64,000 nt of DNA from the NCBI GenBank assembly GCA_965198115.1, contig OZ240241.1, positions 5,504,001 through 5,568,000 of the forward strand, given 5' to 3'. A program made the position numbers and the translations under genes. Below, one piece after another: positions 53,986 through 64,000 of the stretch; within the stretch, counting starts at the first letter, position 1; every line of letters begins with the position of its first letter. Origin of the DNA: Candidatus Latescibacterota bacterium. Its GTDB lineage: Bacteria; Latescibacterota; UBA2968. The notes beneath the pieces were generated by a model. The model ran no database searches and was not told the origin of the DNA. It saw only the letters and a program-made list of their open reading frames with translations.

Positions 53986-54222
53986 GTCGTACGGGCGCAG
54001 CCGTCTCTCTGACTTCTGTCTTCTGCGCTGTCGTGGGGCGCGAACATTGGGCGAACCGCCGTTCGCCCCGGAGTTTATCCCGAGGCAAAGCCGAGGGGCC
54101 CACGGTCATTGCCACGCCTGTTCTCCCGCTCACCCCGTCTCCCGCTCGCCCAATGGGGTATTGTCCAGTGTAGAGACCGGTCCTAACGTTTGGGGAGTCG
54201 TGAATCGCAGGAGGGTTCCCAC

Positions 54223-56183
54223 GTGCGTGCCCTTATCGGAAAGAACATCTGCCGAGACCTCGACCAGGCGATGGTGCGGGAGTGGCTCGACACCAACGGC
54301 GGCGGCGGATACGCTTCCACGACCGTGGCTGGCACCAATACACGACGCTATCACGGTCTGCTAGTGGCCGCCCTCGATCCACCTGCCGAGCGCGTGGTCT
54401 ACCTCTCGTCGATCCAGGAAACAGCTTTCGTCGAGAACCAATCGCTCGAGCTCGGGTGCAACATCTATCAGGACGTGGTTCACCCCCGCGGCTATCGCTA
54501 CCTCGAGCACATCCAGCTCGAACCGTATCCCATCCTGACCTACCGGATCGAGGGCGTCTCTCTTGAGAAACACATCGTCATGCTCTCCGGCCGAAACGCC
54601 ACAGCCGTCTCCTACCGCGCGACCGAACCCATCGATCTGACACTCCGCCCTCTGCTCCCCCTGAGAGACTTCCATCACCTGACGCGCTACAACGGAGTGA
54701 TCGATGGCACGCCTGCGATCGAGGGCCATCGAACCTCGTTCACCCCTTACGACAGCCTGCCCGGCATCCATTTCGACCTGTCGGACGGCACGTTTCGACC
54801 CGATGCGTTCTGGTACTACAATTTCTCCTACCCGGTCGAGGCTTACAGGGGACTCGACAGCATCGAAGACCTCTACGCGCCGGGAGAGTGGCGCTGTCAC
54901 GTCACGCGCGATTCCCCCCTGACCTTCGTTGCGAGCGTCGGCGAGGCCGTATCTCCAGGCGAAGCTTTCGACCTGGCCGATCTGGAGCAGCGCGGTCGAC
55001 ACGAACGTTCGGAAAGCGTCACCACCGAGATCGATGACGGTTTCGAACGCGCCCTGAACGGAGCCGCAGACGCATTCGTCGTTCGCCGAGAGAGTGGGCT
55101 GTCGACGATCCTGGCCGGTTACCCCTGGTTCGGCGATTGGGGGCGTGACACGATGATCGCCCTGCCCGGTCTGACGCTCGTCACGGGACGACACGAAGAG
55201 GCGAAAGAGATCCTCACGACCTTCGCGCGTGCCTGCGATGGGGGCATGATCCCCAATCGCTTCCCCGATCACGGCGAGAGACCGGACTACAACAGCGTCG
55301 ACGCATCCCTCTAGTTCGTGCACGCCGTCGATCGATACCTGGCCTACACCGGCGACACCGAAGGGATCCGATCCGACATCTGGGACGTCGTGAAGTCTAT
55401 CGTGGGAGCCTATCACGAGGAGACGCGCTACAACATCCACGTGGATGACGACGGTCTGCTTTTCGCAGGGGAAGAAGGCGTGCAGCTGACCTGGATGGAT
55501 GCAAAAGTAGGCGATTGGGTCGTCACACCACGAAGCGGAAAGCCCGTCGAAATCAACGCGCTGTGGTACAACGCGGTCTCCGTCGCCCAGACGCTGGCCA
55601 AAGCGTACGACGACGCACCGTTCGCGAAGATGTGCGGTCAACTAAGAAAGAAATCGAGACGACCTTCTGGAATGACGAAACACAATGTTTATACGACTTC
55701 GTCGACGGCAATCGCAAGGACGGGGCGATCCGACCGAATCAGATCTTCGCGCTCAGCCTGCCGAACCGGATGTTAACACGCGATCGTGAACGGTCGATCC
55801 TGCAGGTCGTTCACGACCACCTCGTCACCCCCTACGGTCTGCGAAGTCTGTCCCGCGACCACCCGGACTACGCGGGCCATTACGGCGGGGACCCCCACGA
55901 GCGTGACGGCGCCTACCATCAGGGGGCAGTCTGGGGCTGGCTCATCGGTCCGTTCGTCACCGCCTGGGTGCGGCTCAACGGCGGCCCTGCCAAAGCTCGC
56001 AAGCGTGCCGGAGCCTTCCTCGGCGCGTTCGAGCACCACCTCCACGAAGCGGGTCTGGGCAACATCTCCGAAATCTTCGACGGGGATCCTCCGCACACGC
56101 CACGCGGATGCTATGCCCAGGCGTGGAGTGTGGCCGAAGTCCTACGAGCCTACGTGGAGGACATCCTCGGACGACGTCCCTGA
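54223..56183 (+). pseudogene. Amylo-alpha-1,6-glucosidase (glycogen debranching enzyme) with TAG at 55312-55314 and frameshift at ~55650
   Basis: EWLDTNGGGGYAS, TRRYHGLL, AGYPWFGDWGRDT, NSVDASL*F (W expected), LTWMDA, IRPNQ, YHQG, AQAWSVAE. Confidence 0.88.
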
Positions 56184-56185
56184 GG

Positions 56186-57283
56186 TCAGGTCGTTCCGAA
56201 CGATTGCGCGTAACCGATCGCCGTCACGATCTCCTCGTCCGAAACATCGTCGTGCGACACCGCGTTACCAACGCCGTGCAGGAGCACGAAACGGATCACG
56301 CCGTCTCTCGTCTTCTTGTCGGCACGCATCAGCTTGAACAACTCGTCCGTCGACACGTCAGCCCAGCGTGCAATACCCAGCCTCCGGAACAGCGCATCCT
56401 GACGTCCGCAGGTCCGTTCGTCGAGCACCCCCTTGTCGACCGCGATCCTTCCGTTCGCGACCATCCCCGAAGCGACCGCTTGTCCGTGCTTGATCGTAAA
56501 GCCGGACGCGGCCTCGACCGCGTGCCCGATCGTGTGACCGTAGTTCAACATCTCCCGAAGTCCGCGATCGGTCTCGTCCGCCTCCACCACTCCGGCCTTG
56601 ATCTCACAATTACGCGCGACCAGCCACACAAGCTGATCCGCTTCGATCGTGCGATCCACGATCGCGTCGAGATGGTCCTCCAGAAAGGCGACCAGCTCCT
56701 CATCCCGGATCAGACCGTGCTTCACGACCTCCGCCATCCCCGCGAGGTATTCGTCATCCGGCAACGTCTTCAGCGTGTCCGTGTCGATATAGACGAGACT
56801 GGGCTGATGAAACGCGCCAATCATGTTCTTCCCGAGCGGATGGTCCACCGCCGTCTTCCCCCCGACGCTCGCATCGACCTGTGCCTCCAACGTCGTCGGC
56901 ACTTGAACGAACGGAATCCCCCGCATGAAACCTGCCGCCACGAACCCCCCCACGTCACCCACGACACCACCCCCCAGCGTCACCACGCACGAACCCCGAT
57001 CCAGTCCGGCCGCGATCAAATCGCCCCAAAGGCGCCCGGCCGTCTCGAGCGTCTTGTGGACCTCCCCGTCCGGCATGGTCACGACCGAAACGAAAAAACC
57101 GGCCGCGCTCAGACTGCGCTCGACCGGTTCGAGGTAAAAATCGGCGACCGTCGGGTTCGTGATGATGGCGACACGACGACCCAGTCCTCGTCCACGATAG
57201 GCGTCGCCGATACCCTCGAGGCAACCGTGCCCCACCTGAATCGGGTAGCTGCGGTCGCCAAGACCCACTTGAATCTCCGTCAC
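56186..57283 (-). CDS. aroB: 3-dehydroquinate synthase
   Basis: LGGGVVGD, QVPTTL, DASVGGKT, NYGHTIGHAVE, DKK. Confidence 0.96.
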   Translation of the reverse strand: MTEIQVGLGDRSYPIQVGHGCLEGIGDAYRGRGLGRRVAIITNPTVADFYLEPVERSLSAAGFFVSVVTMPDGEVHKTLETAGRLWGDLIAAGLDRGSCVVTLGGGVVGDVGGFVAAGFMRGIPFVQVPTTLEAQVDASVGGKTAVDHPLGKNMIGAFHQPSLVYIDTDTLKTLPDDEYLAGMAEVVKHGLIRDEELVAFLEDHLDAIVDRTIEADQLVWLVARNCEIKAGVVEADETDRGLREMLNYGHTIGHAVEAASGFTIKHGQAVASGMVANGRIAVDKGVLDERTCGRQDALFRRLGIARWADVSTDELFKLMRADKKTRDGVIRFVLLHGVGNAVSHDDVSDEEIVTAIGYAQSFGTT

Positions 57284-58002
57284 CCGTCAGCCCCCTTCTG
57301 CTTGAGCAGCCCGATCGCTTCCGCCGCCGTCTCTTCGGGAGATCTCACGTCGTCCGACGTGACAAACAGGTCCGCGCGAGCGTAGTAGGGCTCCCGCTCT
57401 TCGAGCATCTGGGCGATCTTGGCCCTTCGCCCGGCATCGTCCAATCCCGCCAGCAGCGGCCGTTCCGATGCCTTGCGCGTCACCCGATCGAAGATCGTGT
57501 CGACCGATGCGCGGATGCACACGCTCACCCCCGAGGATTCGATGATACCCCAGTTCCGCTCCTGGGTCGCAGCCCCTCCGCCCAGCGCGATAACGGCGTC
57601 CGCCCTCTCCCCCGCCTGCCGGACACACGCGTGTTCGATGTCCCGAAAGGCCGCTTCACCATCGCCCTCGAAAATCTCGGGAATGGATTTCCCCGCCGTC
57701 TCGACGATCATGTCGTCCGTGTCGAGGTAGGCTCGCTCGCTCACGTGTGCGATCAGCGGCCCCACCTTACTCTTTCCCGACGCCATGAACCCCGTCAGGA
57801 AAACCGGCTTGCCCGAAACGACCTGACACGGCCCCTCCGCGAAACGCATCGCGCGCTTCTTTCGATAGCACGACTCGCAGTTCCACATAGGGGGCTTGAG
57901 CATCGCGTTGTAGCCTTCATCGAGGACGTCGCGGTGCAAGTGCTCGGTCTCGATGCCGCACGTATCGCATTGTAGCACGCGCTTATCGCTGGTTTCACTC
58001 AT
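57280..58002 (-). CDS. aroK: Shikimate kinase with an N-terminal CxxC...CxxC extension
   Basis: GFMASGKS, DTD, EAAFR, ALGGG, RPLL; extension contains CDTC and CESC. Confidence 0.9.
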   Translation of the reverse strand: MSETSDKRVLQCDTCGIETEHLHRDVLDEGYNAMLKPPMWNCESCYRKKRAMRFAEGPCQVVSGKPVFLTGFMASGKSKVGPLIAHVSERAYLDTDDMIVETAGKSIPEIFEGDGEAAFRDIEHACVRQAGERADAVIALGGGAATQERNWGIIESSGVSVCIRASVDTIFDRVTRKASERPLLAGLDDAGRRAKIAQMLEEREPYYARADLFVTSDDVRSPEETAAEAIGLLKQKGADG

Positions 58003-58202
58003 TTGTTTTCCGCGGGTTGGTGGGCGCTGTCGTCCGCCGCTTTCTTGCCTCTGACTTCTATCTTCTGTTCGCAGCCGGGAGGCTGCTCCCACCGTTGATT
58101 CGTTCGCTTCAGTGAGAGGGGCGAAGCCGTCTTTACCGCCCACCGCTCACAGCCGACCGCCGATCTGATTTTTCCCAGTCAGAGACTGTTCCCACAGCGA
58201 AC

Positions 58203-60976: not shown

Positions 60977-61843
60977 CTACGATTGAAACCGTCCAACCAC
61001 GGCCTGCTTCATCACATCCGTAGGGGGAAAGGTGCCCGTCCAGATCTCGAACGACCGCGCACCCTGGAAGACCAGCATGTCGAGGCCGCCGTAGGCCTTC
61101 GCGCCGGCCGTCTCGAATTGCCCCATCAACGTCGTTTTCAACGGATTGAAAACCGTGTCGTAGAGGATGAGATCCGGATGGACGACTGTCGTGTCCACGA
61201 TGGGACTCCCATCGACCTCAGGATGCATCCCCAGCGACGTCGTGTTGACCACGAGCCCCGCGTCGACGAACGCGGCGCGCTGTTCTTCCACCTCCATCCC
61301 TCCGGGGTGAATGGCTTTCCCCGTGATCTTCTCCATATCCGCGGCCAGGGCTTCTGCTCGACGCGTCGTTCGATTGAGGAGCGTCACGCAGTCGACTTCG
61401 GCGCGAGACGCCAGCGCGTAGGTCACGGCTCGAGCGGCGCCCCCGGCCCCGAGCACGACGCAACGCGATGGGAGCGTCGACAGCCCGGCGACGCGTTCGA
61501 GTGCGGTCAAGACACCGAAGACATCCGTGTTGTGACCCGTCAGGTCGCCGTCTTCGTTGTGGATCGTGTTAACAGCTCCGACCGCGAGCGCTTCCTCCGA
61601 AATCCGATCGACGTGCTCCATCACCGCAAGCTTGTGCGGAATCGTCACATTCAGACCGAGCAAGTCGAAAGCGCGGACCCCGGCGACGGCCTCTCCGACG
61701 CGATCGGGAAGGACGTGGTAGGCCACGTAGCAGCAATCCAGCCCCAGGGCGTCGATCGCCGCGTTGTGCATGTCCGGCGAAAAGGAGTGCGCGATGGGAT
61801 CGCCGATCACACCCATCACACGACTGGTGGAACGAATCTTCAA
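60977..61843 (-). CDS. aroE: Shikimate dehydrogenase
   Basis: GDPIAHSFSP, NVTIPHK, GAVNT, NTD, GAGGAA, NTTSLGM, MLVFQG. Confidence 0.96.
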   Translation of the reverse strand: MKIRSTSRVMGVIGDPIAHSFSPDMHNAAIDALGLDCCYVAYHVLPDRVGEAVAGVRAFDLLGLNVTIPHKLAVMEHVDRISEEALAVGAVNTIHNEDGDLTGHNTDVFGVLTALERVAGLSTLPSRCVVLGAGGAARAVTYALASRAEVDCVTLLNRTTRRAEALAADMEKITGKAIHPGGMEVEEQRAAFVDAGLVVNTTSLGMHPEVDGSPIVDTTVVHPDLILYDTVFNPLKTTLMGQFETAGAKAYGGLDMLVFQGARSFEIWTGTFPPTDVMKQAVVGRFQS

Positions 61844-61889: not shown

Positions 61890-62030
61890 CTACCCCAGAA
61901 GATCTTCCACGAACTGATCGGCAATGTCGAAGCTCTCTGCCCAACTGCACCCGTAGACGTAGCGGATGAAGGCCACACCGCCGAGGATGCAGACGATCGT
62001 CATGAACGCCAGTTTGAACAGGATTCTCAT
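61890..62030 (-). CDS. Small membrane protein (46 aa); below the ORF-track size cutoff
   Basis: MRILFKLAFMTIVCILGGVAFIRYVYGCSWAESFDIADQFVEDLLG; RBS aaagga; starts 3 nt after the aroA-like stop. Confidence 0.7.
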   Translation of the reverse strand: MRILFKLAFMTIVCILGGVAFIRYVYGCSWAESFDIADQFVEDLLG

Positions 62031-62033
62031 CGG

Positions 62034-63383
62034 CTATCTTCCTTTCACCCGGACCACGGACGCGATCCGCTCGAGGATTCCAGGATAGGTCTGATGCACG
62101 GGCCCTGGATTCACGATACGCGAAACGCCCTCCGCGGCCAGCCCGGCAACCGTCAGCGCCAACGTCACGCGTGCGTCTCCCCCCGCTTCCAGTTCGCCTC
62201 CCTGCAAGTTCTGTATGCCCTCGATGACCAGCCCATCCGGCATTTCTCCCACGCGGACACCGAGACGCCGAAGGTTCTCCACCATCAACTCGATGACGTC
62301 CGTGCCGCCTTCCCTCAACGCGGACACGTCGCGGATCACGGTTTCTCCCTGTGCGCAGGCGGCCACAACCGAGAGGAGCGGAATCTCGTCCCTGAAAAGC
62401 ACGCTGTACTCGTCGGCAATTTTGATCTTCCGAAGGTCGCCCATCGATTCGACGCGGTAGGCACGGGAGGAGATTCCAGAATCGGTCCGTGTCTTGTCAA
62501 TGTCGACACTAACGTTGAACCGTCTCAAGAGATCGATCAGGCGGCGTGTCTTCCAATCGGTGTGCGCATCCAGAACCGTTAGGGAGGACTGGGGCAGCAC
62601 CGCCGCGAGTCCCATCAGACAGGCCGCCGCCGTGGCGTCGCCGGGCAAAACGTGATCCATCGGCACCAGCGTCTGGGGCCCTTCCAGGAAGATTCGATGG
62701 CCGTCCGCATCCTCCACGCGGGCCTTTTCCAGCCGTCCCTCAGCGCGTCTGAACAGCACTTCCAGATCGTCTTCGCCCGCCAGGTCCTGAATCAGTTCAT
62801 AGGTCCCTTTTTGCCGAACCGCACCCAGGAATACTGCGGCCTTGACGGCGGAATCGGGTTGCCCGAGCGCGTAGGACCCCGGCTTCGGCGTGTTGATGCC
62901 GATCTCGACCTCGAACGGCGTTGCTTCGCCACCACGAACGACGATGCCAAAAGCCTCCAGGGCGTCGAGGATGCCTCGCGCTTCGCGAGTATAGGGGTCG
63001 CCGATCGTCAAACGACCTCCGAAGGCCGATCCGGCGACCAAACCGGAAAGACAGGCGAAAGCGGTGGGAGTCGACGCCTCGAGCACGGCGTCGGTCGATC
63101 GGAGCCCTCCTCCATGAACGGTCGCGGTCTCACCATCGAACGAAACCTCCACACCCAATCCAGAAAGCGGGGTCGCAATCGCCGTCACTTCCGGGCGTCC
63201 CGAACACCTCACCACGGTCGTCTCTCCGTTCACGAGCGCCCCGAACGCCAGCGCCATCGTCGACAGTTCCGGGTTTCCCGGCAGGTCGCACTGTCCGTTC
63301 AGCCCCGTTGCCTGGGGGATCGCCTCGAGGTCGATCTGCATCGCTTCGGATGGTGCTGCGACTTCCGTCTCTGCCATGCTCAC
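62034..63383 (-). CDS. EPSP-synthase-fold protein with degenerate active site (AroA-like pseudoenzyme)
   Basis: Colinear with class II AroA (LPG, PGD, DEIP, A.GETVIRD, PDGLVIEG, TYP) but catalytic motifs are replaced. Confidence 0.85.
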   Translation of the reverse strand: MSMAETEVAAPSEAMQIDLEAIPQATGLNGQCDLPGNPELSTMALAFGALVNGETTVVRCSGRPEVTAIATPLSGLGVEVSFDGETATVHGGGLRSTDAVLEASTPTAFACLSGLVAGSAFGGRLTIGDPYTREARGILDALEAFGIVVRGGEATPFEVEIGINTPKPGSYALGQPDSAVKAAVFLGAVRQKGTYELIQDLAGEDDLEVLFRRAEGRLEKARVEDADGHRIFLEGPQTLVPMDHVLPGDATAAACLMGLAAVLPQSSLTVLDAHTDWKTRRLIDLLRRFNVSVDIDKTRTDSGISSRAYRVESMGDLRKIKIADEYSVLFRDEIPLLSVVAACAQGETVIRDVSALREGGTDVIELMVENLRRLGVRVGEMPDGLVIEGIQNLQGGELEAGGDARVTLALTVAGLAAEGVSRIVNPGPVHQTYPGILERIASVVRVKGR

Positions 63384-63388
63384 TCCCG

Positions 63389-64000
63389 TTACACGAGAAC
63401 CTTGAATCCTCGACCTTCGAACAAGCGAGAAGCCGACTCGGCATCCGTTCCACTCCCGAATCCGAGTCGCAAAGAACCGCCTTCACCTTCGCGCACCTTC
63501 ATCACTTCGATGTCTTTGATGTTGATCCCCGCCTCCGCCAGCAGCCCACCAATTTCGGCGATCACACCGGGACGATCTTCGACCATCAGCCGCAGTTCGT
63601 GGAGCGGCGACATGAACCCTTTCGAGTCGCTCGGAATCCCGGCACGCACCTCCTGGGCATAGGAGAAGTCGGATGCCAGCGCGTCCACTTCCAAACGCGA
63701 GGAGATTTCGTCCAGCGTATCCCGAAACCTGGAGACGCTCTCTCGAATCGCCGCCACGTTCGTTTGGCAGATATCCCGCCACATCTCATAGGGGCTGGAG
63801 GCGATCCGCGTCATATCCCGAAAGCCCCCCGCCGCCATCTTCAGAGCCAGACCCTCCGGGACGTCGAGACGCCCCACCATCCCCACGAGGGATATCGCCA
63901 TCAGCTGGGGCAGGTGACTGATCGCCGCGGCCACACGATCGTGCGTCTCCGCATCCAGAACGAGAGTACGGGCACCCGTCGAACCCACGAGGTCCGCCAG
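63389..64000 (-). CDS. tyrA: Prephenate/arogenate dehydrogenase with C-terminal ACT domain (5' part outside window)
   Basis: HDRVAAAISHLPQL, AAGGFRDMTRIASS, MWRDI; ACT motif VEDRPGVIA. Confidence 0.93.
   Translation of the reverse strand: MADLVGSTGARTLVLDAETHDRVAAAISHLPQLMAISLVGMVGRLDVPEGLALKMAAGGFRDMTRIASSPYEMWRDICQTNVAAIRESVSRFRDTLDEISSRLEVDALASDFSYAQEVRAGIPSDSKGFMSPLHELRLMVEDRPGVIAEIGGLLAEAGINIKDIEVMKVREGEGGSLRLGFGSGTDAESASRLFEGRGFKVLV

Follow-up and report, generated by a model that had tools for sequence, protein, structure and literature searches.

A class-wide EPSP synthase pseudoenzyme in Latescibacterota and a possible docking role for its C-terminal lobe

Introduction

EPSP synthase (AroA) is a textbook single-function enzyme and the target of glyphosate, with its active site located between two lobes. 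In the aromatic-pathway cluster of a Candidatus Latescibacterota bacterium, the aroA position is occupied by a gene (here aroA*) whose product appears to retain the fold without most of the residues that bind ligands. The question is what such a protein is kept for. We considered a stretch of 64,000 nucleotides (contig OZ240241.1, positions 5,504,001 to 5,568,000; the window), related loci across the phylum, and predicted structures. The features needed below are:

62034..63377, minus strand: aroA* (P0002), 447 aa, EPSP-synthase fold, class II ligand motifs missing
63383..63387, minus strand: GGGAG, ribosome-binding-site-like by sequence reading, preceding ATG 63377
63389..64000, minus strand: tyrA, 3' portion (prephenate dehydrogenase carrying an ACT domain), extending past the window
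61890..62030, minus strand: sm, conserved 46-aa protein between aroA* and aroE, no Pfam family, candidate partner
60977..61843, minus strand: aroE, shikimate dehydrogenase, by domain and profile matches
62643..63263, minus strand: N-terminal lobe, residues 39-245 by the 1p89 alignment, the portion deleted in relatives
62217..62432, minus strand: C-lobe beta-sheet unit, residues 316-387, carrying the lineage signature (R316, K/R319, E345, R349, R370, G377, hydrophobic 379 and V384), kept in all three truncated forms

Results

Gene order and start codon

A preliminary description of the locus had placed an intact 449-aa ORF between tyrA and aroE. That frame, which begins at an upstream in-frame GTG (63383), is indeed free of stops (62034-63383, minus strand), with tyrA-ACT and aroE as neighbours. 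ATG 63377 is the likelier start, as GGGAG stands 5 nt and the tyrA stop codon (63389-63391) 11 nt ahead of it, and residue numbers of AroA* therefore refer to the 447-aa P0002. The 46-aa ORF between aroA* and aroE was absent from the earlier account. The cluster runs trpE-G-D-C-F, tyrS, a beta-lactamase-fold gene, trpB-A, chorismate mutase and aroG, and continues with tyrA-ACT, aroA*, sm, aroE, ubiE, argS, aroK and aroB, the trp and tyrS names being assigned by reading translations. A scan for promoters and terminators gave signal at chance level, and a search for an RNA holder listed none.

Some further features were seen nearby. The beta-lactamase-fold gene (PF00144; L004:7838-9457, minus strand) interrupts this cluster, with tyrS on one side and trpB on the other. 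The shikimate kinase (57280-58143, minus strand) carries an N-terminal extension with CxxC...CxxC, possibly a zinc-binding module, which is present also at locus L073. On the plus strand, a glycogen-debranching-enzyme gene (GDE_N and GDE_C; window positions 54190-56183) lies in three pieces, interrupted by a stop codon (TAG, 55312-55314) and, further on, by a change of frame, and is either a pseudogene or an assembly error.

Fold and loss of the EPSP synthase motifs

AroA* matches PF00275, the two-lobe enolpyruvyl-transferase fold, with 132 bits, while its TIGR01356 score of 158.5 lies below the equivalog cut-off of 287.25. It was rejected as a MurA, being far under the cut-offs of TIGR01072 (52.8 vs 392.7) and PRK09369 (58.1 vs 297), and a separate MurA-like gene is present at L002. 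The AlphaFold2 model, built from a 49-row alignment, has a pLDDT of 93.4, and its top structural matches are class II EPSP synthases (Foldseek TM 0.74, E 4e-32; VIA Z 39.6, rmsd 4.0, 423 aligned). The end-to-end alignment with class II AroA that had been made by eye was borne out by phmmer against Coxiella 4gfp (133 bits) and by 29% identity to the syntenic intact enzyme of locus L120.

Class II enzymes are characterized by the motifs GDKX, RPMXR, SAQ, RXHXE and NXTR, as given in PMC8320642. At these positions AroA* reads GNPE, REARG, DSA, EDDLE and DWKT, such that all five are broken. Each replacement listed in the preliminary description was seen in our alignments (PGDKSISHR to PGNPELSTM, GNSGTTMR to ASTPTAFA, SAQVKS to DSAVKA, RDHTE to EDDLE, NPTR to DWKT, RVKESDR to REGGTDV and DHR to DAR), and proper alignment did not restore the catalytic residues. 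Asp313 and Glu341 are named as catalytic in PMC9058485. The equivalent of the former is kept (D330), that of the latter is a glycine (G358), and the equivalents of K340, R344 and H385 are likewise lost. These E. coli labels were carried onto AroA* through alignments. The earlier statement that only DEIP and the final Arg remain holds as far as D313 and R386 are kept, but was too narrow, since the window protein keeps the equivalents of T97 and R124 too, which are found in 2/26 and 2/25 close orthologues, respectively.

The losses extend across orthologues. K22 was retained in none of the dead-copy groups (0/26, 0/19 and 0/4), nor was K340 (0/26, 0/14, 0/17 and 0/4) or H385 (0/26, 0/14, 0/19 and 0/4), whereas each of the three is present in all 10 intact enzymes of the phylum. 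With catalytic and ligand residues gone across orthologues and the fold kept, AroA* can be called a pseudoenzyme, and it is very probable, judging by its sequence, that it has no catalytic activity.

A second, intact AroA

Three PF00275 genes are present in the genome: AroA*, the MurA-like gene, and a class I AroA at an unlinked site. The last of these has kept every motif intact and aligns along its whole length with E. coli 1g6s; aroC is also present. The chemistry would be done by this second AroA. Across the window's class, 124 of 132 genomes have a TIGR01356 match at E<=1e-60 away from the AroA* slot. Five of the other eight were examined: a class-I-like AroA that is divergent but intact is present in two, a fragment lies at the end of a contig in a third, and in G034 and G156 (95% and 90% complete, fragmented assemblies) no intact AroA was seen. 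Replacement AroAs in the phylum belong to at least three different clades. Several distinct clades are also represented among the intact replacements read at L160, L161, L174, L176, L179, L257, L260, L131 and L136, among them long-branched enzymes of family f4 and short, class-I-like ones.

Distribution, synteny and trees

A protein search returned 147 hits, of which 50 are close homologues (E<=8e-74), followed by a gap to the next hit at 6e-38; the relatives are labelled Latescibacterota, and some Gemmatimonadota or Handelsmanbacteria. At E<=1e-20, a profile search had matches in 127 of the 132 genomes of the class; as the match in G079 (4.5e-21) is not a clear orthologue, we count 126/132. 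Every copy read in the class is dead; for family f4, this refers to 24 of 72 matches read, all degenerate. In family f10, which belongs to another class, the slot likewise contains a dead form, one that has diverged further (11/13 genomes read; in one more the gene is lost).

Other classes of the phylum keep a class II AroA with intact motifs in the slot. Intact-motif class II enzymes were found in families f5, f6, f7, f9, f11 and f12, and loci L120, L121 and L127 present them in the order tyrA-aroA-sm(-aroE-ubiE-argS). This synteny implies that the slot once held an active enzyme. In family f6 (L122-L124), the sole aroA found at E<=1e-60 has K in place of R100 and T in place of Q171, its other motifs being intact, and may represent an intermediate state. 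aroA* is cleanly absent from G028 (95% complete) and G056 (97%), in both of which sm comes straight after tyrA, and a class II copy was not found in families f8, f13 and f14; the gene is thus not essential. In G048 (family f8; L226:4501-6270), two tandem aroE-like genes directly follow tyrA, with neither class II aroA nor sm.

Trees (FastTree and IQ-TREE quick) gave three well-supported dead clades, f1/f2/f3, f4 and f10, and fit either one or several losses of catalysis. In neither tree are the dead copies nested in the intact phylum clade, possibly due to long-branch attraction. Orthology of AroA* to the intact class II genes is accordingly based on synteny and not on the trees.

Additional degenerate class II AroAs (P0123, P0126-P0129, P0133, P0135, P0139, P0168, P0192 and P0202) fall outside the clades studied, and all 11 carry the glycine discussed below as G377. 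Several of these, as well as f10 copies, contain an insertion with an LERRL-like helix, and a Zixibacteria-labelled cluster (L190-L192) is located directly behind argS.

Selection

For pairwise dN/dS (NG86), we used pairs with dS of 0.05-1.5, and it should be considered that within-genus pairs are not independent. Values for AroA* were 0.05-0.34 in five genera, well below 1 and speaking against neutral decay, as compared to 0.13-0.19 for canonical aroA and 0.11-0.22 for neighbouring enzymes. For the window protein against G001, dN/dS was 0.12, at a dS of 1.75 that is near saturation. Genus g7 (12 sequences) had medians of 0.34 for the N-lobe and 0.20 for the C-lobe, g6 (three sequences) of 0.23 and 0.05, and g28 (three sequences) of 0.29 and 0.15, while in g25 (one pair) the lobe difference is gone (0.23 and 0.22).

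The claim that ligand residues were lost selectively was addressed using 78 columns conserved at >=90% in 172 generic class II enzymes chosen as intact, and a list of ligand residues. For the window protein by itself the difference is not significant, as 4/16 ligand columns and 29/62 others are kept (Fisher p=0.16). It is significant for the orthologue groups, with 2/16 vs 37/62 (p=0.0014), 2/16 vs 27/62 (p=0.023) and 1/16 vs 32/62 (p=0.0012).

Natural half-proteins

In genus g4, the match is limited to the C-terminal half in 21/21 genomes. The six loci first read there contain a 216-219-aa ORF in the aroA* slot, in which the first strand is fused straight to the second hinge and residues 32-243 are removed. 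As the solved isolated N-terminal domain 1p89 aligns to residues 39-245 of the AroA* model, this deletion removes the N-terminal lobe. Two f3 genomes contain a separate half-form of 215-227 aa, and G026 a 160-aa form that begins near residue 287 and belongs to a six-sequence database cluster. The g4 and f3 half-forms branch apart from each other with FastTree as well as IQ-TREE; the FastTree tree, the only one to contain the 160-aa form, has it in a third position. On these sequences, the N-lobe is deleted independently in three lineages.

The remnants have not drifted freely: dN/dS of the g4 half-form is 0.17 (14 sequences), and the 160-aa form differs from a full-length congener by a dN of 0.14 and a dS of 0.73, with little added divergence from outgroups. 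An Atlas search with the half-protein returned PF00275 clusters only, and its single-sequence fold had a pLDDT of 36.

As the active site lies between the lobes, the function common to the lineage cannot be catalysis in the cleft. The same holds for the changed substrate that had been raised as an option, which cannot be the shared function when half of the active site is lost, and which three lineages without the whole N-lobe disfavour. A heteromer, taken as one with the canonical AroA, is disfavoured as well, given the three N-lobe losses, replacements from at least three clades, and a signature older than the replacements.

A conserved C-lobe signature

A set of residues is conserved in the dead groups and not in generic class II enzymes, namely R278, R285, R316, K/R319, E345, R349, D350, G357, R370, G377, a hydrophobic residue at 379, V384, D/E397, E416 and E418, all clustering in the C-lobe. 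G377 occurs in 63/63 dead copies of the phylum and in 11/11 other degenerate hits, as well as in 7/10 intact enzymes of the phylum and in 4/172 generic class II enzymes. It is absent from 4/4 intact f11/f12 enzymes read. K/R319 is found in 59/59 class copies vs 31/172 generic enzymes. Family f10 keeps G377, while basic residues at 319 and 349 are absent from 4/4 copies.

Most signature residues fall on strands 316-320, 342-349, 375-379 and 382-387, a region kept in all three truncations. Together they would make up a single sheet facing the solvent, with Gly, Val and Met at its centre and charges around them; exposure here is deduced from the in/out alternation of strands and the topology of the fold, which in EPSP synthases is of the inside-out type, rather than from model coordinates. 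Since intact relatives also carry the signature, it is likely older than the loss of catalysis, and the best reading of these sequences may be a binding function that existed both before and after catalysis. It is probable that AroA* functions through its C-lobe surface, and its partner would be a protein.

The candidate partner sm

sm was found in 148 of 168 phylum genomes and gave 255 database hits. It is under strong selection (dN/dS 0.06-0.14) and is predicted to be a membrane protein, hydrophobic near its N-terminus and acidic and amphipathic towards its C-terminus. Residues 1-7 have a median charge of +2 and those beyond residue 22 one of -4, which by the positive-inside rule suggests an N-in/C-out orientation that places the acidic helix outside the cytoplasm. 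Nothing in Pfam scored above cut-off (best E 0.023), and the Atlas hits were under 0.9 and all unnamed.

Among candidate partners, sm fits gene presence best. It was not found in families f8, f11, f12 and f14; in f11/f12, whose intact AroA lacks G377 (4/4 read), it was found in 0/7 genomes while TyrA was found in 4/7, a contrast which is probably one evolutionary event in genomes that are 57-91% complete. Conversely, sm persists without AroA* in three genomes (G028, G056 and G071), was not found at L190-L192, where a G377-bearing degenerate AroA follows argS, and in family f6 is located away from aroA, after def/fmt-like genes. We name sm as the partner only tentatively, and TyrA with slightly more reserve still, other partners together being more probable than either.

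Discussion

The proposed history of aroA* is as follows. It would be the operon's original class II EPSP synthase gene, with the active ancestor already bearing a binding surface. An unrelated AroA would have taken over the chemistry, after which the cleft decayed, the ligand motifs were lost and the N-lobe became dispensable. AroA* would then have been kept for docking, with one predicted outer beta-sheet of the C-lobe binding a partner, most plausibly sm. We consider a protein-docking role of the C-lobe, with sm as leading candidate, to be somewhat favoured overall.

The alternatives should be weighed against the same data. AroA* could serve as a regulatory or stabilizing subunit of TyrA, bound through the C-lobe, which we regard as possible yet rather unlikely. 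tyrA usually ends from a few to ~100 nt from aroA* in the window's class and family f10, TyrA-AroA fusions are known, and one ACT position is hydrophobic in 11/11 families with class II AroA and T/H/R in three families without. The last signal is confounded by divergence: while the true triple, with 9 columns, comes out on top of all 364 family triples, triples of f8, f13 and a gene-bearing family still give 6-8. In addition, three long open frames checked in family f4 contain no in-frame TyrA fusion, f11/f12 own TyrA-ACT but no G377, and in f5/f6, which keep G377, tyrA lies elsewhere. A precedent is offered by the TyrA-AroF fusion of P. syringae, with an EPSPS domain that has a ~200-residue N-terminal deletion beside a second, laterally acquired aroA, and with a regulatory role speculated by its authors (Song et al. 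2005, PMC1173090; the article speaks of an N-terminal deletion in two places and of a C-terminal truncation in another). The half-forms described here are similar in being approximately N-lobe-less, beside TyrA and accompanied by a second aroA. AroA*, however, is a stand-alone protein, class-wide and present in a second family, mostly full length and under measured purifying selection. A fusion remnant of that type was rejected, as tyrA ends at its own stop codon and the f4 frames are not fusions.

Less probable than a TyrA subunit is that the basic C-lobe residues bind a polyanion such as RNA (leader RNA, tRNA or an ArgRS-tRNA complex), in the way that the related Rcl1/RtcA fold acts on RNA. 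R278, R285, R316, K/R319, R349 and R370 are near-invariant in the class, argS lies in the cluster across the class and directly ahead of the degenerate AroA in L190-L192, and the fold is also that of RtcA and Rcl1 (Z 11.9-13.4, rmsd ~3, ~200 aligned). Yet the patch also contains conserved acids (E345, E378, D397 and E416) around its Gly/Val/Met centre, family f10 keeps G377 without the basic residues, and likeness of fold alone does not prove function. More improbable again is an enzymatic or ligand-sensing role of full-length AroA*, whose cleft, having turned acidic, would take a new and possibly cationic substrate. The newly conserved cleft acids of group A full-length copies (D203 88%, D204 92%, E206 100%) and R403 (26/26) would fit this, as would selection on the N-lobe (dN/dS 0.23-0.34), whereas cleft residues vary among families f1/f2, f4 and f10, and three N-lobe deletions left remnants still under selection. 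A slowly decaying relic, kept open only for translational coupling to sm and aroE, would agree with the clean absence of the gene from two nearly complete genomes, with the large deletions that recur and with the long branches. It is largely refuted by the C-lobe dN/dS of 0.05-0.22, and neither retention in 126/132 genomes nor lineage-specific invariant residues, which coupling would not need, agree with it, such that we give it very little credence. The earlier view of a pseudoenzyme under selection rather than random decay was thus upheld, considering the second AroA, the retention across the class, dN/dS and the confident fold.

Among known systems, the closest are class II EPSP synthases (EC 2.5.1.19; CP4 2gg6, Coxiella 3slh/4gfp, Acinetobacter 5buf), which share with AroA* the predicted two-lobe fold, PF00275 and the position after tyrA. 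AroA* differs from them in its five broken motifs, its sub-cut-off TIGR01356 score, the C-lobe signature and its single-lobe relatives. Rcl1, a cyclase-dead member of the fold that is used in a protein complex, is RtcA-like and belongs to the same fold superfamily (Rcl1p-Bms1p complex 4clq; Z 11.9, rmsd 3.1, 202 aligned). It is, nonetheless, a single-lobe protein of eukaryotic ribosome assembly with 9% identity to AroA*, and should be considered as an analogy only. We found no paper on the AroA* family in a literature search, in which most subscription journals were outside coverage.

We regard the class-wide EPSP synthase pseudoenzyme as real, as judged from comparison of the genes. More speculatively, and with probability on the low side, EPSP synthase in Latescibacterota could have moonlighted as the docking subunit in a membrane-anchored complex of the aromatic pathway, with a 46-aa microprotein as its base, a role that would have outlived catalysis more than once and ended as a single-lobe module. 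Several database entries of the family are named 3-phosphoshikimate 1-carboxyvinyltransferase, a label that would lead pathway reconstructions and glyphosate-class surveys astray. For a partner search, the 219-aa half-protein offers a ready bait. A dead copy that is kept under selection across a class hints at a second role of AroA, which the half-proteins map to ~70 residues and which may also act in intact enzymes that carry the same signature.
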